This document shows, in pieces, positions 12,476 to 28,785 of a stretch of 64,000 bases of DNA. Below the pieces are notes generated by a model that did no database searches, was not told the origin of the DNA, and was given only the letters and a program-made list of their open reading frames with translations. The DNA comes from Chitinophagales bacterium (lineage in GTDB: Bacteria > Bacteroidota > Bacteroidia > Chitinophagales > LD1). The stretch covers positions 61,749 to 125,748 of the forward strand of contig JAXLUO010000007.1 in the NCBI GenBank assembly GCA_046329495.1, in the 5' to 3' direction. A program made the position numbers and the translations under genes. Position 1 is the stretch's first letter, and each line of letters begins with the position of its first letter.

Positions 12476-13267
12476 ATGAAACAACTGTACTCCCTGACCC
12501 TGGTACTGGCGTTCTCGGCTTCGGCTATGGCCCAAAATGTTGGTGTAGGAACCAACAACCCCGCATCTAAATTAGATGTAAAAGGAAACTTAACCATTGG
12601 TAACACCTATTCCGGCAATGCGGCACCGGCTAATGGTGCCATCATTCAAGGCCCTGTAGGTATAGGCACTTCCTCCCCCGATGGAAACGCGTTGCTGGAC
12701 CTTACCGCCACCGACAAAGGTTTGCTGTTACCGCGTGTGGCGCTGGTAAGCACCTCTAACCCAATAAGCGGTACCAAGCCCGATGGTTTAATGGTTTACA
12801 ATACCAGTACAACCGGCACTTACTCCACACCGGGGGTATATACATGGAGCACAACTGCTAACGATTGGGTACGCATTATAACCAATACTACGCTTAGCGG
12901 TTCCTTACAGCCATTAACCAACAGCGCTGGTGGCGGTTTAGGCACGTTTAGTTACAATGGCAGCACCGCTACCCAAATAGGTATTGCCAACCAGGGTGTA
13001 GTAACGGGTATGATAGCCAACGATGCGGTAACTACCTCGCAAATAGCCCCTAATACAATTACCAGCGCCGATATGGGCCCTAACTCGGTTGACCTCAGCA
13101 GCGGTGTGGTAACCAACGTGCTGCCCATTAACCGTGGCGGCACCAACACCAACAGTTTAGGCAGTGGTGGTAGTATTGCTTACAGCAACGGCACTTCGTA
13201 TAGCTTTTCGCCGGTTGGTACCGGTGGCCAAGTTTTAATAAGCGGGGGCACAGGCCAACCTACCTGG
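12476..13267 (+). repeat. 792-nt conserved 5' module, copy 1, shared by the two tail-fibre-like genes
   Basis: Colinear with 16267..17058 with no indels. Outside the signal peptide I count about a dozen amino-acid substitutions by eye. The two proteins diverge immediately after GTGQPTW. Confidence 0.9.
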
Positions 13268-16222
13268 ACCTCAGTATCTTCTCTAAATGCCGACTTAACC
13301 CCCGGCACAGGCTTAACAGGTAGCGCCTACGATGGCTCCTCGCCCCAAACGTTTGGGGTAGCTTATGGCACAACCGCAGGAACTGCCGTACAAGGCAACC
13401 AAACAGCAACTATCAGCGCCGGAGCCGGATTAACAGGTGGCGTTACCGCCGATGCTTTGGGCGATGGTGTAACTGCAACTGTAAATGTAGGTGCAGGCAC
13501 CGGTATAAGCGTTAATGCCGATGATATTGCGGTTAAAGTGGATGGTAGTACCATCGATGCCGGCGGAGCAGGGGGCTCGCTGCGCGTTATTAGTATTCCG
13601 GGCGGCAATACAGGGTATATACAAAATACTACCAGCCAGCAAACACCGGCCAATTTTAATATAAGTGGTAACGGTATCCTCGCCGGGGCCACTCCTTTAA
13701 CCTTTACCTCTATCGGTACCGGCAACTATAATAAAACCGTGCTTTACCACGATGCCACACCAAACGGTTTTTATTTGGACCTGGCCCGTACCACCGATGC
13801 TGCCGGCGGTACGCCTATCGACTTCCGGATTGATGCACGTGGTGGAGGGGCAAACTTTTTTAGTATTAAAGGCGCTACAGGCAATGTAGGCATAGGCACG
13901 GCTGCACCCAATGTAAGGTTAGAGGTAAACGGTGCAACCCGCACTTCTTCGCTACAACTCACCAATACCAATACCGTACTTACGCAAGGCAGCGGAAACT
14001 CCATGCGCACTACCACCAACTACGGTTATACCGAAATTGGTCCGCAGAACACGGGATGGAGCCATTTTAATACTGATAGGCCGGCCTTCTGGTTCAATAA
14101 TCCTGTTTATGTAAATGGCGGTCAGTTCAGCAGCTACAATACCAGCGATCTGTTATTGCAAACCAATGGCACCACCCGTATAACTGCGCTTAGCACCAAT
14201 GGTAACGTGGGTATTGGCGTTAGCCCTTCGGCCCGCCTGCATGTTAGTGGTGGCGGTTTGTTGCTGGGCACTAACGGTACTTCATCCAACACACGTACTC
14301 TTACTATTTTAGAAGACGGCGATGCACAAACCAATTTCGGTTCGTATCCCGGTGCATGGACCAGCGCCCTGCAAATTCAGGATAATACCAGCGCTAACCG
14401 TTTTGTTTGGTTATCGCCGCTGGATGCCGGTTCAAGTGCAAATACCCGCCTGGTAAGTGCAGGTAGTGGCTTCGATCTGTATGTAAACGGAAATTCAGGA
14501 AGTTCCGGTTCCCTGGCTATGTCGGTGGCAGCAGGTACTTCCGTAACCCTGCCTTCGCTTAGTGCAGGCGGTTTGGTAAAGTCTTCAGGCGGCACTCTTC
14601 AAATTGCCGGTGGCGGCGATTTACCCGGCGGCAGCGGTAACTATATTCAAAACGGTACAGGTTCACAATCCGCTAATTTTAATATTACCGGTTTTGGTTA
14701 TGCAGGCAACTACTTTCAAACGCCTACCATGTATGTAAGCAACTACCGCCATACAGCCAGCACATACGAAAATGTTTATGCGGATAATAACAGTTCAGGT
14801 GGTTTCAGATTACTGCGTAACGATGGTAATAGCTGGGGCTATTTTTATGCAGATAACGGTGGTATCGGTATTTTGAAAGACGGCAGTTGGGCCATACGCG
14901 CTTCGGGCAGTACCAATGGAACTAACTCCGACGTTAGCTTTTATACCGACGGTGGAAACCGCCGGGCCTATATCAGTAGCGGCGGCTTGTATTTCGATGC
15001 GGCTAATCCATATATTAACGCATCTTCTTATTTCATTTCTCCGGGCGGTGCTTACTTTAACAGCGGCACAGTTTATTTCGAAGCAGCAACACAACACCGC
15101 GGCGGTATACAAAACGATGGTGGCAACTATAATGGCTGGGTGCGTATACACGACGACCTTTGGAGCGCCGGCTGGCTGCGCAGCGATGGCGGTGCAGGCT
15201 GGTATAGCCAAAGTTATGGTGGCGGATGGAACATGGTGGATGGCTCTTATGTTCGCTGCTATGGCGATAAAGCACTTACCTATGGGTTAGGAGCTTACAA
15301 CACCGCTTCAGTTTATGGCGGCTATGCATACGGCAATAGTACCAGCGATGGTCACCGCCAGTTACCCAATCCTAATGCGCCGGGCTCAACCGGATGGGGT
15401 TACCTGGGCCAAAGCAATACCGACTGGTACTATGTTTACACGGATAATCTTGCCAACACTTCTGCCCGCGAAAAGAAACGCGACATTACCCCGCTCGACG
15501 ATGCCATGATGGGCTATGTAATGAGCGATATCGAAAAAATTAAACCGTCATTCTATAAGTATAAAGGCGAATCGGATGAAATGGTTCCCGGATTCGAAAC
15601 CCGCTACCGTCCAAATATGCACCTTGGTGTTATTTTGGATGAAACCCCCGATTACCTGCAGGACAATGCCTTTAGCGGTGTAGACGTTTATGCCATGGGC
15701 GTGTTTGCCCTTACCGGTGTTAAATACCAGCAGAAACAAATTAAAGAGTTACAACAACAGGTAAGCAACAACATGACAGTTGGCACCGGCACAATTACCG
15801 GCACATCCGTAACGGTACAGTTACCCGCAGGTTTTTGTGCAACGGGCGAAACCCCTGTAATCAATATTACACCAACCAGCGCTAATACCGGTTTTTATGT
15901 AAGTGCAGCCGATAGCCGGTCATTCACCGTGGCAGCTAATGGCCCCATGACTTTTAACTGGCAGGCCGTAAAAGTTAGTTCTTCTCCGGCACCAGTAGCC
16001 GATGGTAAAACCAATGTTGATCCTGCCTTAGCAGGTCAGTTAGTGGTTGATCCTTCTATTAAAGATAAGGTGCATGATTACTGGAAAAAATCGAAAGAAC
16101 AGTTGCAGGCCGAATACAAAGTGTATCTGGATGGCGTAAAGCAAAACAATCCGCAGTTATACGAGAAACTATTGCGCGAAAACAAAAGTGCTGAAGACTT
16201 TGTAAAGGCACACAGCGAATAA
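12476..16222 (+). CDS. Secreted tail-fibre-like giant protein with S74-type intramolecular-chaperone (autoproteolytic) domain
   Basis: Signal peptide and Gly/Thr/Asn-rich beta-repeats with a recurring GNVGIGTxxPxxxLxV motif. An S74-like segment starts at about 15461 (TSAREKKRDITPLDD...IKPSFYKYK), followed by a coiled coil (QQKQIKELQQQ) and a further ~155-aa tail. Confidence 0.85.
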   Translation: MKQLYSLTLVLAFSASAMAQNVGVGTNNPASKLDVKGNLTIGNTYSGNAAPANGAIIQGPVGIGTSSPDGNALLDLTATDKGLLLPRVALVSTSNPISGTKPDGLMVYNTSTTGTYSTPGVYTWSTTANDWVRIITNTTLSGSLQPLTNSAGGGLGTFSYNGSTATQIGIANQGVVTGMIANDAVTTSQIAPNTITSADMGPNSVDLSSGVVTNVLPINRGGTNTNSLGSGGSIAYSNGTSYSFSPVGTGGQVLISGGTGQPTWTSVSSLNADLTPGTGLTGSAYDGSSPQTFGVAYGTTAGTAVQGNQTATISAGAGLTGGVTADALGDGVTATVNVGAGTGISVNADDIAVKVDGSTIDAGGAGGSLRVISIPGGNTGYIQNTTSQQTPANFNISGNGILAGATPLTFTSIGTGNYNKTVLYHDATPNGFYLDLARTTDAAGGTPIDFRIDARGGGANFFSIKGATGNVGIGTAAPNVRLEVNGATRTSSLQLTNTNTVLTQGSGNSMRTTTNYGYTEIGPQNTGWSHFNTDRPAFWFNNPVYVNGGQFSSYNTSDLLLQTNGTTRITALSTNGNVGIGVSPSARLHVSGGGLLLGTNGTSSNTRTLTILEDGDAQTNFGSYPGAWTSALQIQDNTSANRFVWLSPLDAGSSANTRLVSAGSGFDLYVNGNSGSSGSLAMSVAAGTSVTLPSLSAGGLVKSSGGTLQIAGGGDLPGGSGNYIQNGTGSQSANFNITGFGYAGNYFQTPTMYVSNYRHTASTYENVYADNNSSGGFRLLRNDGNSWGYFYADNGGIGILKDGSWAIRASGSTNGTNSDVSFYTDGGNRRAYISSGGLYFDAANPYINASSYFISPGGAYFNSGTVYFEAATQHRGGIQNDGGNYNGWVRIHDDLWSAGWLRSDGGAGWYSQSYGGGWNMVDGSYVRCYGDKALTYGLGAYNTASVYGGYAYGNSTSDGHRQLPNPNAPGSTGWGYLGQSNTDWYYVYTDNLANTSAREKKRDITPLDDAMMGYVMSDIEKIKPSFYKYKGESDEMVPGFETRYRPNMHLGVILDETPDYLQDNAFSGVDVYAMGVFALTGVKYQQKQIKELQQQVSNNMTVGTGTITGTSVTVQLPAGFCATGETPVINITPTSANTGFYVSAADSRSFTVAANGPMTFNWQAVKVSSSPAPVADGKTNVDPALAGQLVVDPSIKDKVHDYWKKSKEQLQAEYKVYLDGVKQNNPQLYEKLLRENKSAEDFVKAHSE

Positions 16223-16266: not shown

Positions 16267-17058
16267 ATGAAACAGTTCTGCTCCCTCACATTGGTTTTGC
16301 TACTTGTTGGAATGGCAAATGCCCAAAATGTTGGTGTAGGAACCAACACCCCTGCGTCTAAATTAGATGTAAAAGGAAACTTAACCATTGGTAATACCTA
16401 CTCCGGCAATGCGGCACCTTCCAATGGTGCCATCATTCAAGGCCCTGTAGGTATAGGTACGCCTTCGCCCGATGGCAATGCCTTGCTGGACCTTACCGCC
16501 ACCGATAAAGGTTTGCTGTTACCGCGTGTGGCGCTGGTAAGTAATTCTAACCCTATTAGCGGTACCAAACCCGATGGTTTAATGGTTTACAATACCAGCA
16601 CTACCGGTACGTATTCCACACCGGGCGTTTATACCTGGAGCACTGCTGCCAACGATTGGGTACGCATTATCACAAACACCACCCTTAGCGGTTCCTTACA
16701 GCCATTAACCAATAGTGCAGGGGGCGGGTTGGCTACCTTTAGTTACAACGGCAGTGCCGCTACACAAATAGGTATTGCCAACCAGGGTGTGGTAACGGGT
16801 ATGATCGCCAACGATGCGGTTACTACTTCACAAATTGCCCCTAATACAATCACCAGTGCCGATATGGGCCCTAACTCGGTTGACCTTAGCAGCGGCGTGG
16901 TAACAAACGTGTTGCCTATCAACCGCGGTGGCACCAACACCAACAGCTTAGGCAGCGGTGGTAGCGTAGCTTACAGTAACGGCACCTCTTATGCATTTTC
17001 TCCGGTAGGCACTTCAGGCCAGGTATTGGTAAGTGGTGGCACCGGTCAGCCTACGTGG
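16267..17058 (+). repeat. 792-nt conserved 5' module, copy 2
   Basis: See copy 1. Synonymous differences are scattered through the module, so this is not a very recent duplication or an assembly artefact. Confidence 0.9.
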
Positions 17059-19914
17059 AGCAATGCCAACACCACGCTTACCAAAAATGATATTACCAGC
17101 AGCACTACAGGTGTTTCTATTACCAACGGCACAGGGCAGGTAGTAGGTGGCAGCAACGTAAGTGTAAATGTAGCCACCAACAGTGCCGCCTCACAGGGTT
17201 TGGTTCCGGCAGGCACCGGTAACAACAACAAAGTATGGGGTACCGATGGTGCCGGCAATCCTTCGTGGAGCAACGTAAGCAATGCGCAGTTGGCTAACAG
17301 CAGCATAACCGTAAACACTACCGGTGGTATTACCGGTGGCGGCACGGTAGCATTAGGCGGTAGCATCACTATTACCGGTAGTGGCGGCACCATTACAGGT
17401 AGCGGCACTACTAACTATGTACCTAAGTGGACACCCAGCGGAACGGTATTGGGCAACAGTCAGATATTTGATAACGGTACCAGTATCGGCGTAGGAACCA
17501 ACGCTCCGGCCGCTCCCTTTCATATATATGGCGATAGGTATACGTATTATGGTCCTAACAGCAGTTGGGGCGAATACCTGCAGGTGGGTGGCAACGGCCG
17601 TGTAACAACAGGAGCTTCGGTGGCAGCAACCAACGGTAACCTGCACCTCGATGCCAAAAACGGAACCTTTGCAACGTATCTTAACTGGTATAGTCAAAAC
17701 AATTTATACTTAGTTGGACAGGGAGGCAACATTGGTGTGGGCACGGCGGTAACCAATAACATGCTGCAACTCCGCTCCGATAATTCCGCACAGGGTATGC
17801 AATGGAACACCAGCAGCTACATTGGTGCCAATCAATGGGGTACCCGTTTGTATAAAACCGATGTGGGCGGCGGTATTCCCCTGCGTATCGAAACGCAAAG
17901 CCTGAATACCTGGTATACCGCTATGGATATCGACCACGGGCAGGACAATGCGCACCCTTCGTTAAAAACTTATTACAATACACAGTTGGCCGTTTCGGGT
18001 GGCAATGTGGGTGTTGGCACCACGGCACCAACCACCAAGTTGCATGTTAATGCAGGCGCTTTGCGTGTAGGCACCAGCAGCACCGATCCCGGTGCTACCG
18101 ATGGTGTTCTTTCTATCGGTAACCAATCGGTTAACTATAACCCTACTACCGGTAACTGGACCACCACGGGCACCACCATGGTGCTTAGTGCATTAGATTA
18201 TTCTACCATAGGTTTTCATGATGCCGGAAGCCGGGTTGATTTCATCCGCACCGGCGGTGGGGTAATGCAACTGGGTTATAATGGCGGATGGGGTGCGGCA
18301 GCCGTGCAGGTGCCTGCTTTGGCCGGCGCCGGTACACGCATGGTAACAGCCGATGTAAACGGCACTTTAGGCGTACAAAGTTTACCCGGTGGTGTATTGC
18401 CATCAGGCACACTGGGGCAAACACTTTATAATAACGGCAGCACATGGGTTAACACAAGCAACTTATATAACGATGGCGCGCAAATTAACCTGGGCAGTTT
18501 TACGACAGCCGATGCCGACGAATGGCCTAAAGTTACCTGGCTGCGCAACACAGGCCTTGGTTGGGACGAAGGCCTTATTAAAGGCAGCAGTGCCCGCGGT
18601 GCATTTGGCCGCACAGGTTTTGGTGTTCACATGGATGCAAGCAGACACTTTGGTTTCTTCTCTTCTGGTTGGAACCCTCTGCTGGATATAGAAGCAGGTA
18701 CCGGCCGCGTGTATGTGCGCGGTAGTATGGAAATAGGCGATGCAGGTTTTGCTTATGCTGTACCGAATACCTGTGGCGGCAACTGGGTAAGCAATGCCGA
18801 TATGGCCATTTATGTACGCGACAATACCGGCGGTTGTGGCGACGAAGCTTACATTGCACACTATGCCCGCAGCGGCGAATCAACTACGCTGGAAATTGGT
18901 AATAAGAATGATGCCGATGATCATATTGCCCTTATGCCTTCGGGTAACGTAGGTATTGGCACTACCGCTCCTGAATGGAGAACCCATATCGAAGGGGTAA
19001 ATACACCAAGCTTATTGATGCGCCAAAACGGTACGCATTCCTACGGTATTATGCTGGGTTTAGAAACCTACGATAACGGTGCTCAATCGCAGGACGGTCC
19101 GCGCATCGGCTTCCATAAACGCGGTGCTAAAACCTGGGCCACAGGTATACAAAACGGTGCGGGCGCCCACGGCTATATGGTTTGGGAAGATGGTTACAAT
19201 GGCGGCTGGGGTACTACCCGTTTCGAAATCGGTACAGGAAATAACCGGGCGGTATTTTATAAAGGCCGTGCCAGCGGCGATTGGCCCGAAGCTGATTTGG
19301 TTTTGCAACGCAATGGCGCGCTAACCTATTTCCCAAGCGTTAGCTTCCATAATCCTGGTCAAACAGCGCCGCAGTGGTTAGGTGCATACAGCCCCGAACG
19401 TTTAAATGCCGGTACCTGTTGTGGCGGTGCGTGGGCTAACGTGGCAGCTTTAGGTTTCCAAACCATCAGCGATGTAAGCATGAAAAAGGATATTAAGCCT
19501 CTGGGCGAAGAGGATTACAGTACATCGCTGGCCAATATCCGCCAAATTAACTCTATCCGTTATTTGTATAATAGCGAAATACCAACCGATCCTGAGCCAT
19601 ATAGTGGTATGATTAAGCGCACCAAACCGCACTTAGGCTTTACCGCCCAAAGCTTACCTTCAGAAGTGGTAGTAGAAGACCTTACCAAAAGTTCCTCTAC
19701 TAATCAGGATGGTTATATTCTGGGTTACAGTTTAAATGATATGGATGGGTTATTGGTAGCCGGTGTAAAAGCTCTGGATGCCAACCAGGTGAAGCAGAAC
19801 AGCGAACTGGAAGCCCTGAAAGAAACTGTAGCTAAACAACAACAGCAGATAGAAACTCTTACTAAACTGTTAGAACAACAACTACAACAGCAAAAAGATA
19901 TACAACCGCGGTAA
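16267..19914 (+). CDS. Secreted tail-fibre-like giant protein, paralog of 12476..16222, with C-terminal S74-type chaperone domain
   Basis: Same N-terminal ~264 aa as the upstream gene, then a divergent body. An S74-like segment starts at about 19468 (SDVSMKKDIKPLGEED...INSIRYLYN), followed by a terminal coiled coil (LEALKETVAKQQQQIETLTKLLEQQLQQQ). Confidence 0.85.
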   Translation: MKQFCSLTLVLLLVGMANAQNVGVGTNTPASKLDVKGNLTIGNTYSGNAAPSNGAIIQGPVGIGTPSPDGNALLDLTATDKGLLLPRVALVSNSNPISGTKPDGLMVYNTSTTGTYSTPGVYTWSTAANDWVRIITNTTLSGSLQPLTNSAGGGLATFSYNGSAATQIGIANQGVVTGMIANDAVTTSQIAPNTITSADMGPNSVDLSSGVVTNVLPINRGGTNTNSLGSGGSVAYSNGTSYAFSPVGTSGQVLVSGGTGQPTWSNANTTLTKNDITSSTTGVSITNGTGQVVGGSNVSVNVATNSAASQGLVPAGTGNNNKVWGTDGAGNPSWSNVSNAQLANSSITVNTTGGITGGGTVALGGSITITGSGGTITGSGTTNYVPKWTPSGTVLGNSQIFDNGTSIGVGTNAPAAPFHIYGDRYTYYGPNSSWGEYLQVGGNGRVTTGASVAATNGNLHLDAKNGTFATYLNWYSQNNLYLVGQGGNIGVGTAVTNNMLQLRSDNSAQGMQWNTSSYIGANQWGTRLYKTDVGGGIPLRIETQSLNTWYTAMDIDHGQDNAHPSLKTYYNTQLAVSGGNVGVGTTAPTTKLHVNAGALRVGTSSTDPGATDGVLSIGNQSVNYNPTTGNWTTTGTTMVLSALDYSTIGFHDAGSRVDFIRTGGGVMQLGYNGGWGAAAVQVPALAGAGTRMVTADVNGTLGVQSLPGGVLPSGTLGQTLYNNGSTWVNTSNLYNDGAQINLGSFTTADADEWPKVTWLRNTGLGWDEGLIKGSSARGAFGRTGFGVHMDASRHFGFFSSGWNPLLDIEAGTGRVYVRGSMEIGDAGFAYAVPNTCGGNWVSNADMAIYVRDNTGGCGDEAYIAHYARSGESTTLEIGNKNDADDHIALMPSGNVGIGTTAPEWRTHIEGVNTPSLLMRQNGTHSYGIMLGLETYDNGAQSQDGPRIGFHKRGAKTWATGIQNGAGAHGYMVWEDGYNGGWGTTRFEIGTGNNRAVFYKGRASGDWPEADLVLQRNGALTYFPSVSFHNPGQTAPQWLGAYSPERLNAGTCCGGAWANVAALGFQTISDVSMKKDIKPLGEEDYSTSLANIRQINSIRYLYNSEIPTDPEPYSGMIKRTKPHLGFTAQSLPSEVVVEDLTKSSSTNQDGYILGYSLNDMDGLLVAGVKALDANQVKQNSELEALKETVAKQQQQIETLTKLLEQQLQQQKDIQPR

Positions 19915-19970: not shown

Positions 19971-20131
19971 TGTACAAAGGGTAATACGTGCGTGGCTAAG
20001 GTTCCGGCACCTGCTCTCAGACGGCGCTATTCTAAAATCTTTTTACAATCATAACAATCCGTGTTCATCCGCGTTCCATTTGTAGTATGAGTTCTGTAAT
20101 CTCTCTCTGCTTTTCACTAATTTGCAATTCT

Positions 20132-20758
20132 ATGAGTATCTATAACTACACCCTGCTGTGCCTGGGCGATTCATATACCATCGGCGAATCGGTAGAAGAG
20201 AAGGAACGCTTCCCCGAACAGGCGGTGGCTATGTTGCAGGCCAAAGGACTAAGCTTTGCCAAACCCGAAATTATTGCCAAAACCGGTTGGACTACCGATG
20301 AACTGCAAGCTGCTATAAAAGAAAAGAATCTGACAGGCACGTACGATTTTGTAACCCTGTTGATTGGCGTAAACAACCAATACCGCGGCCGCGACCTGCA
20401 GAACTATCGCACCGAATTTGCTGCTTTGTTACAAACAGCCTTGCAATACGCCAACGGACGAACAGAACGTGTAGTGGTAATATCTATACCCGATTGGGGT
20501 GTAACACCTTTTGTTAGTAAGGATGCCAAACAGCGCAGTGCAGGAACTATAGCACATGAGATTGATGCCTTTAATGCCGTTAACCACGGCGAAGCCAACA
20601 AAGCCGGTGTACACTATTTAGAGATAACCTACCATTCCCGCCTCGCTGCCACCGACTCTACTCTCATTGCAAACGATGGTTTGCACCCCTCGGGTAAAAT
20701 GTATGCCAATTGGGCCTTTAAACTGGCCGAGTATATAGCAGGCACCTTACAGCCATAG
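20132..20758 (+). CDS. SGNH/GDSL hydrolase
   Basis: Block I LLCLGDSYTIGE, block III LLIGVNNQY and block V DGLHPS. I prefer the ATG at 20132 over the track start at 20087. Confidence 0.85.
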   Translation: MSIYNYTLLCLGDSYTIGESVEEKERFPEQAVAMLQAKGLSFAKPEIIAKTGWTTDELQAAIKEKNLTGTYDFVTLLIGVNNQYRGRDLQNYRTEFAALLQTALQYANGRTERVVVISIPDWGVTPFVSKDAKQRSAGTIAHEIDAFNAVNHGEANKAGVHYLEITYHSRLAATDSTLIANDGLHPSGKMYANWAFKLAEYIAGTLQP

Positions 20759-20765
20759 GAATATA

Positions 20766-21098
20766 CTGTCGCGCGTTTGCAACGCGAATCCTCCTTTTAA
20801 ATAAATGACTATCCAATTGCATTCAGCCCTCGCTAATCTTGTCTGCTTTCTGATCTCTGATTTCTATTTTCTCTTTTTTAATCATAACCATCCGTGTTAA
20901 TCAGCGTTCTATGCTGTCCTTACCTGTCGCGCGTTTGCAACGCGTGACGACTAAGCTCCGCGTTTGCAACGCGAATCCTCCTTCTAAGTAAATGACTATC
21001 CAATTGAATTCAGTCCTCGCTAATCTTGTCTGCTTTCTGATCTTTGTTCTCTGCTATCTCTTTTTAATCATAACCATCCGTGTTAATCAGCGTTCTAT
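20766..21098 (+). repeat. Tandem duplication (about 158 + 175 bp) of a composite intergenic unit
   Basis: Each unit contains CTGTCGCGCGTTTGCAACGCG (hairpin), AATCCTCCTT..AAATGACTATCCAATTG, CTCGCTAATCTTGTCTGCTTTCTGATCT and AATCATAACCATCCGTGTTAATCAGCGTTCTAT. The second unit carries an extra CGCGTTTGCAACGCG hairpin. Confidence 0.9.
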
Positions 21099-21765
21099 AA
21101 AAGAAAAGGGCCCTGCTTTCGCAACGCCCTTCTATAGCCATTTGCCTAACTAAAACCGCTTTGCAACCTGCCGGTCCCCCCGGATGACAGGTTAAGCAAA
21201 GCACCGGAAAAAGTAAAACCTCTCCCGGGCTGCAAACATGCTCTCCTGTATCGAATGGCACTGATTCCACTTCACCAATGGTCCCTTTCAGTTTATAAAT
21301 GGTAAAAATTGCCGGAGGCCTTATAGCTGTGCTTTTCTTTTTCTGCCTTCCGCTTTAAGCTTAACCATTAAGGTAACAGCCGTAGTTATTAGACGGATTT
21401 ATATACTATCAAATTTAATTTGTAACCCGTAGTGTAACCCATGCCCAAAAATAGCTATTGAAAATCAATTAGTTACAATGGGTATCACGCAACTTTGTAA
21501 CCCCACCCATTTGTTAAAGATATTTTGCTACCCATCCTTGTTTCGTCTTTAGTTTCCACCATAGTCCGCCGGTCATGTTCTATCTATCATGAGCTTTATT
21601 CCATGCTCCATCTACTATTTACTATGGTCTATTACCACCGCCTCCATTCAGGGTACTTCTTTTATATTTACCCATGCAATTGCCGTGTACATTAAGGTAC
21701 ACAACCACCGGCCGGAATTTTTAACCCCTTTTCCGCGCTTTGCCCTAAAAATTATTCAATTAGGG

Positions 21766-21796
21766 TTTGTAACTCTCCGCAAGAAGATTACTTTTG
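21766..21796 (+). promoter_or_regulatory. Candidate Bacteroidota sigma-A promoter for the ribosomal-protein block
   Basis: TTTG at 21766-21769, a 19-nt spacer, then TACTTTTG at 21789-21796, which matches TAnnTTTG. It lies about 65 nt upstream of the rpsC ATG, and two small hairpins follow in the leader. Confidence 0.45.
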
Positions 21797-21860
21797 CAGT
21801 CCCTTTTTAGGAAGGGATGGCTTTTTATGCCATTTTTTAAACGTTAAAAATTCAACCTGA

Positions 21861-22592
21861 ATGGGTCAAAAAACGAGTCCTGTAGCAAATCGCCTCGGTA
21901 TTGTAAGAGGCTGGGACAGCAACTGGTACGGCGGTAAAGATGCTGCTGCGAAACTGATCGAAGACGAAAAGATACGTCAGTACCTGAAGGCACGTATCAA
22001 CAAAGGTGGTATGTCGCGCATTGTAATCGAAAGAACAATGAAGCGTGTAACTGTTACCATCCATACTTCACGTCCGGGTATTATCATCGGCCGTGGCGGT
22101 AACGAGGTTGACCGTATTAAAGAAGAATTGAAGAAACTGACCGGTAAAGACGTTCAGATTAATATAGTAGAGATTCGCCGCCCCGAAATGGAGGCTGCAA
22201 TCGTAGGCGAAACTATTGCCAAGCAGTTAGAGGCGCGTATCAACTACCGCCGCGCTGTTAAAATGGCTATCGCTTCTGCCATGCGCATGGGTGCCGAAGG
22301 TATCAAGGTGCGTATCGGTGGCCGTATCGGTGGTGCCGATATCGCTCGTAGCGAAGAATACAAGCAAGGTCGTACCCCACTCCACACCTGGAGAGCGGAT
22401 ATCGACTACGCTATCACCGAAGCGCAAACCATCTACGGTAAACTGGGCATCAAAGTATGGATCTGCCGTGGAGAAGTTTACGGTAAGAAAGACTTAACCG
22501 GTGCTTTCGCAGGTGAAGAAAAACAAGAAACACGTCGTCCGAAAGGCCGCGTAGGTGGCGGTGCTCCTCGTGGTGGCGACAGAAAGAAATAA
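21861..22592 (+). CDS. rpsC: 30S ribosomal protein S3
   Basis: KH domain and the S3 C-terminal domain ([41 protein letters not shown]). Codon use is CGT/GGT-rich. The C-terminal tail is basic and Gly-rich. Confidence 0.95.
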
Positions 22593-22633
22593 GCATTAAG
22601 TAGATTATAGTATCAAGATAAACACAGGAAATC

Positions 22634-23056
22634 ATGTTATTACCTAAACGGACAAAATGGAGAAAGACCCAGAAGGGCAGAGTAGCAGAAGTTACCCAGC
22701 GTGGTCATGAAATCGCCTTTGGTACGTATGCACTCAAGTCGCTGGAGAGCGGTAAAATAAGCAACAAGCAAATTGAAGCTGCCCGTGTAGCCTTCACCCG
22801 TTTTATGAAGCGTGAAGGTAAAGTATGGATCCGCATATTCCCCGACAAGCCAATTACCCGCAAGCCTTTAGAGGTACGTATGGGTAAAGGTAAAGGTAAC
22901 CCCGAAGGTTGGGAAGCACCTATCCAGGCCGGTCGTATCCTGTTCGAAGTGGACGGTGTGCCTCGCACTATTGCCTTAGAAGCAATGACCCTGGCTGCCC
23001 ACAAACTGTCGGTAAAAACAAAATTCATCACCCGCCGCGATGCTGTTGAAGCATAG
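22634..23056 (+). CDS. rplP: 50S ribosomal protein L16
   Basis: [11 protein letters not shown]...[28 protein letters not shown]. Confidence 0.95.
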
Positions 23057-23106
23057 TTGTAACCGGGATAAGAACTGAATACCTAAACGAATAAAATCAC
23101 CAAATC

Positions 23107-23325
23107 ATGGGTGTAAATAAAAAACTGAATCACGAAGATATCCGCCAGTATGTGGCTGATGATCTGTTGGCTACTATTAAGAGCGAAAAAGCTGAACTGA
23201 AGAAACTGAAGTTCCAGCACAGCGTATCTACCGTAGAAAATTCTGCCGGTATTACTGCCAAAAGAAGGAATATTGCCCGCCTGTTAACCGAGGCAAACCG
23301 TCGTAAAAAAGAAAACAAAGCATAA
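23107..23325 (+). CDS. rpmC: 50S ribosomal protein L29
   Basis: Call rests on position between rplP and rpsQ, the 72-aa length and a helical pattern (ELKKLKFQHS...IARLLTE). Confidence 0.8.
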   Translation: MGVNKKLNHEDIRQYVADDLLATIKSEKAELKKLKFQHSVSTVENSAGITAKRRNIARLLTEANRRKKENKA

Positions 23326-23366
23326 GCTAACGGCTGCTGCTTAATAAAGATCAATTAATAAGAGTC

Positions 23367-23621
23367 ATGGAAAGAAAGCTCAGAAAGGAAAGAACAGGGT
23401 TGGTTACCAGCGATAAAATGGATAAAACCATCACCGTTAAAATCGAAAGAAAGGTGAAGCACCCTATTTACGGTAAGTTCGTAAAGCAAACCAAAAGCTT
23501 TAAGGCGCACGACGAGAAGAATGAAGCAAAATCGGGCGATACCGTAAAAATTGCTGAAACCCGTCCGTTGAGCAAAACCAAGCGTTGGAGACTGGTTGAA
23601 ATTATTGAAAGAGCCAAGTAA
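23367..23621 (+). CDS. rpsQ: 30S ribosomal protein S17
   Basis: [34 protein letters not shown]...[18 protein letters not shown]. Confidence 0.95.
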
Positions 23622-23689
23622 TTTTAGAAGTGTGATTGGTGACTGGGGCTGTTCCCCGGTAGGATATCTAAAAGCAAAATTTAAAAGAG

Positions 23690-24058
23690 ATGTTACAGCA
23701 GGAATCAAGAGCAAACGTAGCCGATAACTCAGGTGCGAAAGAAGTACTGGTTATTCGTGTACTGGGCGGTTCAAAAAGACGTTATGCCCGCATCGGCGAT
23801 AAAGTGATTGTTACCGTTAAAAAAGCATTACCTACCGGTGGTGTTAAAAAAGGTGCAGTTTCAACAGCCGTAGTAGTGCGCACTACCCGTTCGGTTCGCC
23901 GTAAGGATGGCTCTTACATCCGTTTCGACGACAACGCCGTTGTGTTGCTCAATGCCCAGGACGAACCACGTGGTACCCGTATCTTCGGACCGGTTGCCCG
24001 CGAACTGCGCGATAAGCAATTTATGAAAATTGTTTCCCTGGCCCCTGAGGTGCTGTAA
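23690..24058 (+). CDS. rplN: 50S ribosomal protein L14
   Basis: [18 protein letters not shown]...[10 protein letters not shown]...[13 protein letters not shown]. Confidence 0.95.
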
Positions 24059-24088
24059 TTTTATCAAAAGCAAAACATTAGTTAGGTT

Positions 24089-24397
24089 ATGAAATTCCAT
24101 ATCAAAAAGAACGACGACGTAATCATCCTGAGTGGCGATGACAAAGGCAAAAAAGGCCGCGTGATTGACGTTGACTATAAGCACAGCCGCGTATTTGTGG
24201 ACGGTGTTAACTTAAACAGCAAGCACAGCAAGCCAAGCCCTAAGAATCCTCAAGGTGGTATCGTTAAAACTCCCGGTGGAATTCATATTTCTAACGTGGC
24301 TCTGTTAAGCGATGGCAAGGCTACCCGCGTAGGTCGTAAAGAAGAAAAAGGTAAGACCGTACGTTTCTCTAAGAAAACCGGCAAGAACCTGGACTAA
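24089..24397 (+). CDS. rplX: 50S ribosomal protein L24
   Basis: KOW motif (IKKNDDVIILSGDDKGKKGRV) and NPQGGIVKTPGGIHISNV. Confidence 0.95.
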   Translation: MKFHIKKNDDVIILSGDDKGKKGRVIDVDYKHSRVFVDGVNLNSKHSKPSPKNPQGGIVKTPGGIHISNVALLSDGKATRVGRKEEKGKTVRFSKKTGKNLD

Positions 24398-24425
24398 TCT
24401 CCCGGATCTATCCACTATATTTTAA

Positions 24426-24453
24426 AAGCCCTGCATTTGCGGGGCTTTTTTAT
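24426..24453 (+). terminator. Rho-independent terminator directly after rplX
   Basis: AGCCCTGC-attt-GCGGGGCT stem followed by TTTTTTATT. Confidence 0.8.
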
Positions 24454-24482
24454 TGGTACCTCTAAATACAATTACTCCTGCA

Positions 24483-25973
24483 TTAAAACTGGAAGTAGAT
24501 GAACGGCTGAATGTCGGAGCTTTTAACCTGCATTACCACTACAATAACCGCTACTAACACGGCCACCTTAGCAGCTAACGGAATATCCGAAACCCATTGT
24601 TGCGATTTGATTTCGAAACTGCGCGGAATGAAGTGCAGCAAGTACCCCAGCAACATTACCAATAACACATTGCGGTAACCGGCAACAAAGTTAAAGAAGA
24701 TGCCCGGTGTAAAATGGCCGGCTATCTGCGATATTACCTCCCACGATTTACTCATGTCCTCGGCACGGAAGAAGATCCAGCAGAAGCACACAAAGTGGAA
24801 GGTAAGCAGCACACCACCAATCTTTACCCATTTGGTATCGGGTATTTTTACAATGCTCTTTACATATTTATCAATACCTAAGGCTACACCGTGCAAGGCT
24901 CCCCAAAGTATAAAGCGGAAAGCCGCCCAATAAGATAGCCCACCTATTACGTGCCATAAGCCGCCTAACAACATGGTAAGAAACTGGTTAAGGTACGTGC
25001 GGAACTGCCCCTTGCGGTTACCGCCTAAGCTGATGTAGAGGTAATCGCGTAGCCAGGTGCTAAGCGATATATGCCAGCGCCGCCAGAACTCCGTAATACT
25101 ACTCGATTGGTAAGGCGAATCGAAGTTGATGTTAAAGTGGAAACCCATTAGCAAAGCAATGCCTATCGCCATATCGCTGTAACCGCTAAAGTCGCAGTAT
25201 ATCTGCATGGCATAGCCGTAAACGCCAAACAGGTTTTCCAGTCCGGTGTATAGCGTAGGGTTCTCAAAAATGCGGTCAACAAAATTGCTGCTGATGTAAT
25301 CCGATATCACTGCCTTTTTAAACAAGCCCGACGCAATCAGAAATACAGCCCTGCCTAAATCTTCCTTCGAAACAAAGGTTGGCTTATAGATCTGCGGAAT
25401 GAAATCTTTGGCGCGTACAATAGGACCTGCCACCAACTGCGGGAAGAAGGATACGAAGAAGGCATAGTCCAGGATGTTATCAATAGGCTTTATCTCCTTG
25501 CGGTAAATATCAATGGTATAACTAAGCGATTGGAAGGTGAAGAACGATACACCCACCGGTATAAAGATGTGGAAGGGGTTAAAGGGCTGTGCGGCTAAAT
25601 CGCACCACATGCTGTAGAAGAAATTGGTGTATTTAAAGAAACCCAATAAACCCAGGTTCAGCACTAAGCTTAACACTAACCAGGCCTTCTTTCGTGCCTC
25701 ACTTTCCGATTTATAAATAAGATTGGCGAGCGTATAATCTACTACGGTGGAGATAAGCAGCAATACAAAATAGCCGCCGCTGCTTTTATAATAAAAGAAG
25801 AGCGAGAACAGCGTTACATAGGTTAGCTTGGCTCTGAAAGATTTATGCAGCAGGTAGTAAATGCTGATAAACGCCATAAACACGAACAGGAAAAGACCCG
25901 AGCTGAAGATCATCGGCTCCCTTTCGTGATATACGAACTGTTCCAGCAGTTTACTTAGATCGGGTTGAAGCAT
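24483..25973 (-). CDS. MBOAT-family membrane O-acyltransferase (AlgI/DltB/PatA-like)
   Basis: Multi-TM protein with MBOAT signatures (FWRRWHISLSTWLRDYLYISLGGNR, GLWHV). I prefer the ATG at 25973 (MLQPDLSK...) because the track start at 26054 runs deep into the upstream gene. Confidence 0.9.
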   Translation of the reverse strand: MLQPDLSKLLEQFVYHEREPMIFSSGLFLFVFMAFISIYYLLHKSFRAKLTYVTLFSLFFYYKSSGGYFVLLLISTVVDYTLANLIYKSESEARKKAWLVLSLVLNLGLLGFFKYTNFFYSMWCDLAAQPFNPFHIFIPVGVSFFTFQSLSYTIDIYRKEIKPIDNILDYAFFVSFFPQLVAGPIVRAKDFIPQIYKPTFVSKEDLGRAVFLIASGLFKKAVISDYISSNFVDRIFENPTLYTGLENLFGVYGYAMQIYCDFSGYSDMAIGIALLMGFHFNINFDSPYQSSSITEFWRRWHISLSTWLRDYLYISLGGNRKGQFRTYLNQFLTMLLGGLWHVIGGLSYWAAFRFILWGALHGVALGIDKYVKSIVKIPDTKWVKIGGVLLTFHFVCFCWIFFRAEDMSKSWEVISQIAGHFTPGIFFNFVAGYRNVLLVMLLGYLLHFIPRSFEIKSQQWVSDIPLAAKVAVLVAVIVVVMQVKSSDIQPFIYFQF

Positions 25974-27234
25974 ACTGATTATAAGCTTGAATAAATGCGT
26001 TGTATAACAAATTACCCTGGTACTGGTAGCCGGCACGTGTAAAGTGCACACCATCGCGCTGCATTAATCCATATTTCTTCCAACTGTAACAACTCTTGTA
26101 ACCACCACCTATCGAGTACAAATCCCAAACAGCCAGGTTGTTTTCTTTAGCATAGTTTACAATCACTGTGTGCATGGTGCCCACCGATGTATTATAATAT
26201 TTACGTCGGTAATACGAATCGGGCGGCGTGGTGAGCAGGAACACAGCGTTCGGGTTATAGAGCTTTATAGCCTTTACCAATGAATCAAGCCTTGCCTTCG
26301 TTATGTTGGCATCCAGCGGACGGCGTTGTGCTTCATTGGTTCCTAACGAAATAATTACCAGATCGGGGTTTACAACGGCCGTTTGTTCTGCAAAATACCT
26401 GGCCCGCACGTAATGATACGCCTCCGCACCATTGGCACCAACCGTATTATAAACAACACCCGAACTGTCGTTCTCTAAACTTAAACCAAAGATAGTTGCC
26501 TGGTTCTGGCTTTCGCTGCTGCGCTCGGCTTTGATAATTATATCGCTGGTAAGCGATGGCAGGGTAGTAGAAGAGATGTTAGGGAAGCTTTCCAGAGAAG
26601 TGCTGCTTAGGATACCTAATTGATTGCCCGTAGTATCCGTAATTCGGAAATCAAAGGAAGTAGAGTCCTTAAGGTAGAACAGTGTTACTTTATTAAACGA
26701 GTAGTTCAAAGGCGGATAATCGAAGGCGCTCAGGTGAAAGTAGATACCCGGGGTATCGGTTTGTATGGTTACACCGCCTATACCAATAGGCATAGGGTTG
26801 TTTACAAAAATGCAGCGCTTGCTGTTGCAGGCCACGTTGCTGGTTATTTTATAATTAAAGGGCTCGTTACTTCCTGCTACGCGTAAAGGCACTACCACAC
26901 CACGGCCGCCGTTGCCAAAGTCCTTCTGCATATTGGTGCGCATGGTCGAACTCAAAAAATCGGCCTGTATGTGCGAATCGCCGATATGCAATACACGCAG
27001 GCGGCTGTTATTGGCCGTACGTTGCTGAAAAAGCTTTTCGAAAAATGAATTTAAACTGCCGGCATTTACCAATTCGTTACGTTCAGGGTGAATGAACGAA
27101 TACTTCTTTAAAGGTGCCGTTTTTACTTCTGCGCTTTGGGCGTACACACCTGTGGCTAAGCAGCAAAACGCAAACAGCATAAGCACTGCTTTGCAACAGG
27201 TAATTTTATTACAGGCTCTTTTTCTTCCGGTCAT
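25951..27234 (-). CDS. SGNH/GDSL-like hydrolase domain protein (putative O-acetyl transfer/esterase partner of the MBOAT)
   Basis: Signal peptide and an SGNH layout: LHIGDSHIQADF, ISLGTNEA, DGVHFTRAGY. An alternative start lies at 27180. Confidence 0.75.
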   Translation of the reverse strand: MTGRKRACNKITCCKAVLMLFAFCCLATGVYAQSAEVKTAPLKKYSFIHPERNELVNAGSLNSFFEKLFQQRTANNSRLRVLHIGDSHIQADFLSSTMRTNMQKDFGNGGRGVVVPLRVAGSNEPFNYKITSNVACNSKRCIFVNNPMPIGIGGVTIQTDTPGIYFHLSAFDYPPLNYSFNKVTLFYLKDSTSFDFRITDTTGNQLGILSSTSLESFPNISSTTLPSLTSDIIIKAERSSESQNQATIFGLSLENDSSGVVYNTVGANGAEAYHYVRARYFAEQTAVVNPDLVIISLGTNEAQRRPLDANITKARLDSLVKAIKLYNPNAVFLLTTPPDSYYRRKYYNTSVGTMHTVIVNYAKENNLAVWDLYSIGGGYKSCYSWKKYGLMQRDGVHFTRAGYQYQGNLLYNAFIQAYNQYASTRSK

Positions 27235-28528
27235 ACTTCTCCTTTTCGTATAGCAACGTTCCCATTAATATCTCAGCCACCTTCTTACCGCCATAGTAAG
27301 TAGGGTGGGTATAGTCAGTATTGGCAAGGCGTGGTTTCATGCCGGCCCAGCGTACCATGGTGCTGTCGCCGCCCATGGCTTCAAACATGTCCCAAAAGCA
27401 AACCTGGTTATCGGCCGCCATTTTGCGTTGCGAGGCAATCAGCTCCTTAATACCGGGCATGGTTTTAATCTCCCCGTCTACCTTGGCACCGCGGTCGCTG
27501 CAACCCACCATCAGTATGCTCGAGTGCGGAAAGGCTTTCTTCATCGTTTCCAGCACCTTGTTCATGCCGCGTATATACCAATCGTAGTTCTTAGCTTTTT
27601 CATTAGCCACGTTCAACCCATAATCTAATACCACCAGGTCGTAATGGTGTTGAGCTTCAAAAGCAGCATACATTTGTTCGCTAACAAACCCCAAACCCAT
27701 GCCCGAGTTGCCGCGTACTGAGAAATTATCGACTGTGATACCGCTTGTACTTTCAAACGACATACCGTACAGATCCGCATCGCCCTGCACGCTCAGTTTC
27801 AAGGATTGAAGGTTATCGCCCAACTTAATTTTTCGCAGGCCTTCCGAAGCCGGTAAGTCTACCGTCTGTGTTTCGTTTAATTGTATAGTTGCACCGGTAG
27901 CGCTGCTGTAATACAAAATGGCGGTAGGAAAGGAGTTCAGCCTGGCGCGTTTAACGGCGCTATAGGTAACACGGTTGCCGGCTTGCGGCACAAACACATG
28001 CCCGGCAGGGCCTATAGGGTGTTGCGGGCTGCGTTCGCCTATAATGCTGTAATCGGTAAAGCCTTCATAGGTATGGTTTATAGTTTGGCGGAACCCTGCC
28101 ACCTCGCTGGTAATTGGCACAAAGCCAACTCCGCTGCCGCCAAACACGGCTTGCATGGTATCGCGCAAAGGATCCAGCATAATGTCACCTTCCACATACG
28201 AATCGGCAAAATAAGCTATGCGAACAGAACGGAACTTTGCTGAGTCAAGCGCAGCCAAAAAGATGCGCATGCCGCTGGTGTCCTTCGTATAATCCTCTAC
28301 GCAGGTAACGCCTGTTTTACAGGTATCGGCAAATACCGGTTTAACCAATAGCGATTTATCAATAGCCGTGGTATCGCTTTTATCCTGCTTCATTATATCG
28401 GCCAGGATGTTGATGCGTTTAAAGTGGAAACCGCCGAGATCGAACTCCGGAATGGCATACAACACCAGCAGGCTTGTAATAACAAGCGCTGTGCCCAGCA
28501 CGGAATATTTCAGATAATTAACTGGCAT
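27209..28528 (-). CDS. Membrane-anchored SGNH-like protein (second MBOAT partner)
   Basis: N-terminal TM anchor and degenerate SGNH blocks (AYFADSYVEGD, LDYGLNVA, DYTHPTYYG). The start is taken at MPVNYLKY. Confidence 0.65.
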   Translation of the reverse strand: MPVNYLKYSVLGTALVITSLLVLYAIPEFDLGGFHFKRINILADIMKQDKSDTTAIDKSLLVKPVFADTCKTGVTCVEDYTKDTSGMRIFLAALDSAKFRSVRIAYFADSYVEGDIMLDPLRDTMQAVFGGSGVGFVPITSEVAGFRQTINHTYEGFTDYSIIGERSPQHPIGPAGHVFVPQAGNRVTYSAVKRARLNSFPTAILYYSSATGATIQLNETQTVDLPASEGLRKIKLGDNLQSLKLSVQGDADLYGMSFESTSGITVDNFSVRGNSGMGLGFVSEQMYAAFEAQHHYDLVVLDYGLNVANEKAKNYDWYIRGMNKVLETMKKAFPHSSILMVGCSDRGAKVDGEIKTMPGIKELIASQRKMAADNQVCFWDMFEAMGGDSTMVRWAGMKPRLANTDYTHPTYYGGKKVAEILMGTLLYEKEKYDRKKKSL

Positions 28529-28785
28529 AGGGTAAAGGGGCGGAACAAGGCAGGTAACGGAATGCAATAAAACTACCGCTCAAAATGCCTTCTCCTGCCT
28601 TCGTTGGGCACGAATGTAAAAGAAAGGCCCCGAGCGATACAATTAAACGATACCCCGTTTTCAATTATTGCAAACCTGTTGTGGAAAATTTTGAAGCACT
28701 TACAGGACAGTGCTTCCGCGCTTTTTTACCTCCTGTTTAACGTTTGCCTTTGCCCCTAATTAAAAAGTACGTTTATCTTCGTTAC

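Follow-up and report, generated by a model that had tools for sequence, protein, structure and literature searches.

Why should six genes of the S10/spc cluster of ribosomal-protein genes stand alone on a bacterial chromosome? This question is raised by a 64-kb stretch of contig JAXLUO010000007.1 (hereafter the window), taken from a metagenome-assembled genome (MAG) of a Chitinophagales bacterium. It carries an isolated block of six ribosomal-protein genes, rpsC-rplP-rpmC-rpsQ-rplN-rplX, at 21861-24397 on the plus strand. The original prediction, which was made from the sequence alone, offered two alternatives: either the S10/spc cluster of this genome has been broken in two places, or the block is a second, divergent paralogous copy of six core ribosomal proteins. 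The first alternative is supported by intermediate stages and by fragments starting with rplE in related genomes. The second fits poorly, as the proteins branch as an ordinary Chitinophagales lineage and are under strong purifying selection. We consider it highly probable that the block is a self-contained operon encoding the organism's only uS3, uL16, uL29, uS17, uL14 and uL24, and that it represents one fragment of a disintegrated cluster.

The identity of the six genes is clear. We required the whole protein to score above the curated equivalog cut-off of NCBIfam, and all six open reading frames lie far above it, in agreement with the gene calls of the original prediction. The first gene, rpsC (uS3, 243 aa, 21861-22592), yields 272.3 bits with TIGR01009 against a cut-off of 114.5 and covers model positions 1-211 of 212; its product (MFN8299269.1) is recorded with the Pfam domains KH_2 and Ribosomal_S3_C. 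It is followed, all on the plus strand, by rplP (uL16, 140 aa, 22634-23056; TIGR01164, 175.4 bits, cut-off 76.9), rpmC (uL29, 72 aa, 23107-23325; TIGR00012, 43.3 bits, cut-off 22.6), rpsQ (uS17, 84 aa, 23367-23621; NF004123, 124.1 bits, cut-off 74, also TIGR03635), rplN (uL14, 122 aa, 23690-24058; TIGR01067, 185.7 bits, cut-off 111.1) and rplX (uL24, 102 aa, 24089-24397; TIGR01079, 98.4 bits, cut-off 53.7). Identities to the Chitinophaga orthologues amount to 64-77% (tblastn), with only 43-45% for L24 and L29.

Searching the whole 64-kb window by tblastn with 21 proteins (L3 to SecY) of Chitinophaga arvensicola, whose cluster (L017) is canonical, revealed no S10/spc gene beyond these six. Directly 5' of rpsC, rplV was not found, nor is L22 encoded elsewhere in the window; the upstream neighbour is a GDSL-type lipase gene (20087-20758). 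Likewise, rplE-rpsN-rpsH was not found directly 3' of rplX, and the window is devoid of L5, S14 and S8; here a convergent MBOAT gene (24483-26054, minus strand) lies downstream of the rplX terminator. The description of the DNA before rpsC as 1.1 kb of repeat-rich non-coding sequence with no L22-like frame proved correct: neither an L22 pseudogene nor any other ribosomal-protein remnant was detected at 20759-21860, even at E = 50. Scans of the window for tRNAs and Rfam families gave no tRNA and no family match.

The isolation is reproducible. Independent Logan and ENA assemblies contain 17 contigs with an identical S3 (L081-L086 among them). On the longer of these contigs the block, its terminator side (MBOAT, two GDSL-like genes and RecN) and its upstream side all match those of the window. 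Both block junctions are reproduced in at least six of these independent contigs. In addition, the block is isolated on an 884-kb contig of a congener (GCA_044225825.1, L087), which shares the upstream neighbours of the window (two PTL_trimer proteins, the GDSL gene and a gap of ~1 kb) and has different downstream genes. Because the same block is present in independent assemblies as well as in the MAG of a congener, its junctions are not artefacts of assembly.

Results obtained on relatives show how such a block can be placed in a graded series. We scanned one genome per GTDB species with conserved ribosomal-protein probes; all counts refer to the matches listed. At least 64 Bacteroidota loci with enough sequence are canonical from L3 to SecY. 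The isolated six-gene block was found in two further MAGs, L001 (CAZIBY01, 520-kb contig) and L002 (JAXLUJ01, 419-kb contig), in both cases between flanks that are wholly unrelated to those of the window. When the six proteins are concatenated for a neighbour-joining tree, the window groups with L001 and L002 in one clade inside the Chitinophagales, with branch lengths similar to those of other family-level lineages. Comparing the S3 of the window to the protein database yields 119 further clusters at 73-97% identity, all within the same clade. The block-bearing clade is a large, mostly uncultured environmental lineage of more than 120 S3 clusters, and many of its S3 sequences come from activated sludge and freshwater metagenomes.

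A second S3 tree bears on the break upstream of rpsC. None of the seven examined members of a 124-sequence clade has rplV upstream of rpsC, and all examined sequences outside it are canonical (L091, L295, L297, L210, L211 and the reference loci). The pattern fits one ancestral break between rplV and rpsC. The locus just outside the clade (P0127, L091) is fully canonical and reads S12-S7-EF-G-S10-L3...L22-S3...L24-L5...SecY-Map-IF1-L36-S13-S11-S4-RpoA. Within the clade several states are found. For P0132 (L095, L096) S3 comes first, behind an unrelated divergent gene, and the cluster continues as S3..L24-L5-S14-S8-L6-L18-S5-L30-L15; at L095:15439-17635 glnS is seen after rplO instead of secY. 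For P0110 (L093; L094 = GCA_035444825.1) the series S3..L24 is directly followed by rpsD. This gene (uS4), normally part of the alpha operon, lies at L093:12463-13068, 25 nt after rplX, and forms a seventh block gene in this one sublineage. Finally, S3..L24 stands alone in the window, L087, L293, L001 and L002.

Flanking synteny shared between the window and L001, L002, L093 or L095 was not found. A GlmM-like gene and a TonB-receptor gene upstream of the L095 S3 were considered as a candidate and rejected, the identity being 23% or absent. A further cluster break is seen in L098-L100, where the spc fragment ends after map. Living relatives display at least four kinds of break: rplV from rpsC, rplX from rplE, rplO from secY or map from infA, and displacement of rpsD or the alpha operon. 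The original prediction had proposed to check synteny in the closest relatives and had named, as an outcome that would speak against a case of special interest, an old and fixed rearrangement. This is what we find, since the same split is routine in the clade.

A probe specific to the clade, L5 of L095, served to locate the genes expected after rplX in relatives. In MAG STL-BAC27 (JAXLUJ01) the block lies on JAXLUJ010000002.1 (L002) and the spc fragment on JAXLUJ010000010.1 (L100). The latter begins with rplE-rpsN-rpsH-rplF-rplR-rpsE-rpmD-rplO-secY-map, and no ribosomal-protein gene was detected in the 10 kb upstream of its rplE (31 reference cluster proteins). Three further MAGs of the clade (L097, L098 and L099) start with rplE in the same way; in all non-clade matches listed for the probe, rplX directly precedes rplE. 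Both fragments can also be seen on a single sequence. Logan contig SRR16642454_45 (98,857 bp) carries an isolated S3..L24 block at ~20.9-23.3 kb, with an S3 (P0032) that is 91% identical to that of the window, and on the other strand rplE..secY-map-infA-rpsM-rpsK-rpsD-rpoA-rplQ, from ~91.0 down to 80.4 kb (L5 = P0286). The rplE fragment is located ~67 kb from the block and has a CHU_C gene before rplE. For the L001-type lineage (L5 P0377) a fragment with rplE first occurs in two other contigs with identical L5 (L299/L300), the alpha-operon genes infA..rplQ being found ~5.7 kb upstream of rplE.

The canonical slot is empty in these relatives, with rplE in first place. The block genes are orthologues of the canonical copy, as follows from the continuous S3..L15 cluster in a clade member and from the canonical close outgroups. 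By extrapolation from relatives with 79-97% identical S3, we strongly infer that the genome of the window carries the block genes as a single copy. One feature of STL-BAC27 deserves separate mention. The only rplX seen in this MAG (L002:12188-12409) encodes an L24 of 73 aa that ends after the KOW domain (...GGIHISNVALA*) and is devoid of the 29 C-terminal residues found in the L24 of the window and L001. Decay of a redundant copy was considered and rejected, given the clean terminator and the finding that the spc fragment of the same genome has no L24; uL24 may be naturally shortened here.

Signals that would make the block an independent transcription unit are found on both sides. A Bacteroidota-type sigma-A promoter is predicted at 21766-21796 (plus strand), consisting of a -33 element TTTG, a 19-nt spacer and a -7 element TACTTTTG, exactly as had been stated before. 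The element has identical spacing and position in L087. The pattern TTTG-N19-TAnnTTTG is present upstream of S3 in L001 and L002 too, and the promoter is also conserved in L293. Since an alignment of seven S3-first loci shows TAnnTTTGCAG.CC.TTT to be invariant, including the -7 box, the data suggest that the S3-first lineages inherited a single promoter, which arose with the break. Each new fragment has a similar predicted promoter of strong type, TAnnTTTGC.GTCC. At the other end an intrinsic terminator is predicted at 24424-24449 (listed to 24455; plus strand). Its 11-bp stem includes six G-C pairs and closes a loop of 4 nt; a T-run follows (TTATTGG preceded by TTTT). This is consistent with the strong terminator that had been noted right after rplX and before the convergent MBOAT gene.

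We propose that the ancestral str-S10-spc-alpha supercluster came apart stepwise in this group of Chitinophagales. Detachment of rpsC from rplV would date to the origin of the clade or close to it, and the new 5' end would then have gained its sigma-A promoter. Separation of rplX from rplE would have followed later, possibly more than once, with an intrinsic terminator remaining downstream of rplX. The other genes (rplE..secY-map together with those of the alpha operon) would form a promoter-driven fragment of their own elsewhere on the chromosome. Transcription of the six genes would start from 21766-21796 and end at 24424-24449, with high translation. With a promoter and a terminator to itself, the block would have to be coordinated in trans with the other ribosomal-protein fragments, through the shared promoter type and growth-rate control, not through co-transcription. 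By analogy with other bacteria, duplication followed by reciprocal loss is a plausible route, as is transposon-directed inversion.

Another possibility concerns the leaders of the new fragments. The predicted 5' untranslated region of rpsC (21797-21860, plus strand) is A/T-rich and contains hairpins at 21799-21818 and 21819-21831, followed by a U-run (minimum free energy -14.8 kcal/mol, z = -2.0). An insertion of ~22 nt, specific to the window and L087, makes the second small hairpin with its U-run. It is absent from the other S3-first lineages and kept within the genus only, most lineages having a short A/T-rich leader. Hairpin and U-run may be terminator- or attenuator-like. Rfam covariance models gave no match at gathering score in the window or in the leaders of seven related loci. 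It might be argued that new leaders specific to each fragment have taken over from co-transcriptional and autogenous control, the rpsC hairpin and U-run acting as an attenuator, but we regard this as rather doubtful.

Leaders of the fragments starting with rplE show a structure of their own. Every such fragment has a predicted promoter of its own (TTTG-N19-TAnnTTTG, at -81), and a conserved 8-bp hairpin is found ~15-35 nt before the rplE start codon (GCACGGTTGGTAATCGTGC, AGACGGTCGGAAATCGTCT or GGACGGTTGGGAACCGTCC; also given as GACGGTYGGNAAYCGTC). Its sites are L097:9968-9988, L098:9966-9986, L100:9966-9986 and L291:7828-7848. Two pairs show compensatory changes across the four sequences, and there is no Rfam match. 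One possible role of the hairpin is that of a new autoregulatory operator, bound for instance by S8 or L5, which would control the relocated spc fragment.

Codon use and sequence conservation allow us to judge what kind of copy the block represents. Compared to 18 other genes of the window, the block hardly uses rare codons: CGA/CGG/AGG account for 2% of the Arg codons (16% elsewhere), GGA/GGG for 5% of the Gly codons (17%), ATA for 7% of the Ile codons (28%) and CTT/CTA for 0% of the Leu codons (17%). The strong codon bias that had been noted is thus real. Between the window and L087 the six genes have a nonsynonymous rate (dN) of 0.015 and a synonymous rate (dS) of 0.20 (dN/dS = 0.076). DNA identity is 93% for the block and ~200 nt upstream, against 76-81% for the neighbouring genes. 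Because of the codon bias, the low dN/dS and the high DNA identity to the congener, the block fits a highly expressed, strongly constrained primary copy.

The same comparison might also indicate that the block is a mobile six-gene cassette that horizontal transfer or recombination has brought in or recently exchanged. For the GDSL and PTL genes next to it, dS is ~1.4, about seven times the 0.20 of the block, and this reduction exceeds what is usually linked to expression. Moreover, no orthologues are shared between the flanks of window/L087, L001, L002, L093, L095 and L293, the window and its congener counting as one. A low dS is, however, to be expected in very highly expressed genes, and upstream synteny with the congener (two PTL_trimer genes and GDSL) is conserved. 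Neither in the window nor in the relatives' gene tables is an integrase, a transposase or a tRNA seen next to the block. The phylogeny of the block is coherent with a single vertical clade, and its promoter is homologous across lineages. Transfer is therefore an improbable explanation.

Less probable still is a paralogous second copy that would give an alternative ribosome composition beside an intact S10/spc cluster elsewhere. At first sight the moderate identity to the Chitinophaga orthologues, lowest for L24 and L29, might be taken as a sign of such a copy, but more than 120 S3 clusters share this divergence, which is in line with a lineage at family level. The S3 N-terminus, which departs from the textbook motif, had been regarded as a hint in the same direction. 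Yet GQKTSP(I/V)ANRLGI is the common form across the clade (GQKTSPIANRLGI occurs in 49 listed S3 clusters, the exact form of the window in four), and Bacteroidota outside the clade have GQKxNPIGNRLGI; the expected GQKVNPxGFRLG is thus not the Bacteroidota pattern. Segmental duplications of the cluster are known in other phyla (PMC8046335), and a copy could be attached to the fragment ending with rplV, which was never seen. Against this, rplE heads its fragment and the canonical slot is empty in the relatives' genomes, block-type genes are part of the continuous S3..L15 cluster of a clade member, close outgroups are canonical, and both dN/dS and codon bias point to strong constraint. The matches listed contain no second S3 from CAZIBY01 or JAXLUJ01, which is weak evidence.

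The weakest explanation is that assembly or binning produced chimeric joins at 20760-21860 and 24400-24480. Misassembly had been named as a pitfall by the original prediction. This explanation can be dismissed even though the source is a MAG and the spacer holds repeats, since both junctions recur in the independent contigs with identical S3, in the 884-kb contig of the congener and in many other contigs of the clade.

A disintegrated cluster with single-copy genes thus is the preferred reading, though several points count against it. Its single-copy part derives from the relatives mentioned above, not from the MAG of the window itself. The suggestion to look for rplV, rplE and additional copies was followed in these relatives: fragments with rplE first were found, but genome scans, protein search and candidate look-ups yielded no fragment ending with rplV from any member of the fragmented subclade. 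The L22 of L091 (P0127) as a genome-scan probe returned 34 loci, none from the clade; the best match of an L2 scan for this fragment was 70% identical among the matches listed; and an L22 protein-database search with tree-guided candidates gave only canonical clusters of other lineages at the four loci examined. A second rpsC downstream of rplV is therefore formally possible. Concerning the breaks, L095 is nested among isolated-block lineages, so that rplX and rplE either separated more than once or this branch is misplaced; the trees are neighbour-joining trees of short proteins, and the order and number of breaks are uncertain. The low dS of the block fits codon selection, but could also result from recent recombination between congeners. 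Taken together, the rearrangement appears old, fixed and lineage-wide and concerns single-copy genes; a paralogue is very unlikely, and judged by sequence the functional consequences are small.

The non-coding spacer between the GDSL-lipase gene and the operon promoter (20759-21765) has some features of its own. A local duplication (20766-21098) contains a ~187-bp unit twice (20772-20878 and 20959-21065, 91% identical), and a hairpin motif, CGCGTTTGCAACGCG, is present in three copies in the spacer and nowhere else in the window. The congener L087 carries the ~187-bp unit once, and the spacer is only partly conserved there. Two extra TTTGTAACCC motifs are located at 21419 and 21494. More generally, the 10-mer TTTGTAACYC occurs four times in the window (20348-20357, 21419-21428, 21494-21503 and 21766-21775) against 0.38 expected. 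Three copies are on the same strand within 350 bp upstream of rpsC, the last one being the -33 element of the promoter, and the stretch 21418-21519 is 76% conserved in L087. The copies may serve as sites for a regulator or be left over from a duplicated promoter.

How does the block compare to known systems? In the canonical S10 and spc operons, such as those of E. coli (rpsJ..rpsQ and rplN..rpmJ), the same six genes with orthologous products are found in the same order, S3-L16-L29-S17-L14-L24, with tight spacing. The canonical form in Bacteroidota is a contiguous str-S10-spc-alpha cluster, as in L091 and Chitinophaga (L017). Compared to the E. coli operons, the cuts in the window are inside S10 (rplV from rpsC) and inside spc (rplX from rplE) rather than between operons, so that the block spans the S10/spc boundary and has a predicted promoter and terminator of its own. 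Unlike the E. coli operons, it is also apart from the genes for L4 and S8, which are the autoregulators of the S10 and spc operons in E. coli. Regulatory RNAs of the L4/S8 type are in any case reported to be mostly restricted to Gammaproteobacteria (PMC3616713).

In Gammaproteobacteria and Bacilli the cluster is described as stable over very long times, and the reported routes of change include the separation of operons from each other, the deletion of single genes, segmental duplication, and duplication with subsequent loss (PMC8046335; PMC6735719). Relocation has been proposed to proceed via duplication then loss or via transposon-directed inversion (PMC8046335; PMC6735719). There, as in our clade, an ultra-stable cluster is broken in particular lineages. 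Those studies, however, mainly describe 'invasion-separation' between operons and single-gene deletions, whereas we observe breaks within operons, in another phylum and with several successive stages kept in one clade. With respect to paralogy, zinc-independent paralogues are known for L31, L33, L36, S14 and S18. Duplicate copies of rpmJ and rpsN have been reported as well (PMC8046335). Known paralogues resemble the paralogue alternative in being extra copies outside the main cluster, but they are single small genes beside an in-cluster copy; here six large core proteins are concerned and the slot is empty in relatives.

Fragmentation itself is not unique to this clade, as other Bacteroidota show sporadic internal breaks. 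S3 is separated from L16 in Bacteroidales/'Candidatus Egerieisoma' (L071, L074, L077 and L079), and L16 comes first in L108, L141 and L167. Further breaks lie between L16 and L29 (L030), between S19 and L22 (L259 and L174) and between S14 and S8 (Hymenobacter L018 and L055; also L103). A Chitinophagales MAG is among the lineages concerned, and none of these loci has runs of N. In contrast to our clade, these are single breaks at different breakpoints, and none gives the six-gene unit S3..L24.

Just upstream of the GDSL gene, two adjacent paralogous genes on the plus strand (12476-16222 and 16267-19914) encode secreted proteins of ~1,200 aa each. According to the annotation of the congener they contain PTL_trimer and a weak Peptidase_S74 (tail-fibre chaperone-like), and their DNA is 78-80% conserved in L087. 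On the other side, the region 24483-28567 (minus strand) holds the MBOAT gene (DltB/AlgI-like, below the equivalog cut-off) and then two overlapping SGNH/GDSL-like genes, an arrangement that is kept in the Logan contigs. Together these genes look like a module for O-acyl transfer to polysaccharides.

Summarizing, the relevance of this locus mainly concerns housekeeping and genome evolution; no new type of ribosome or mechanism is indicated. For annotators and for quality control of MAGs, an isolated rpsC..rplX in these Chitinophagales is genuine and reflects neither contamination nor duplication. The S10/spc cluster, which serves as a near-invariant synteny anchor and marker block, can be cut within its operons and yet persist in that state for long periods in an environmental lineage that is successful. 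For studies on the stability of operon clusters, this clade offers several preserved intermediate stages.

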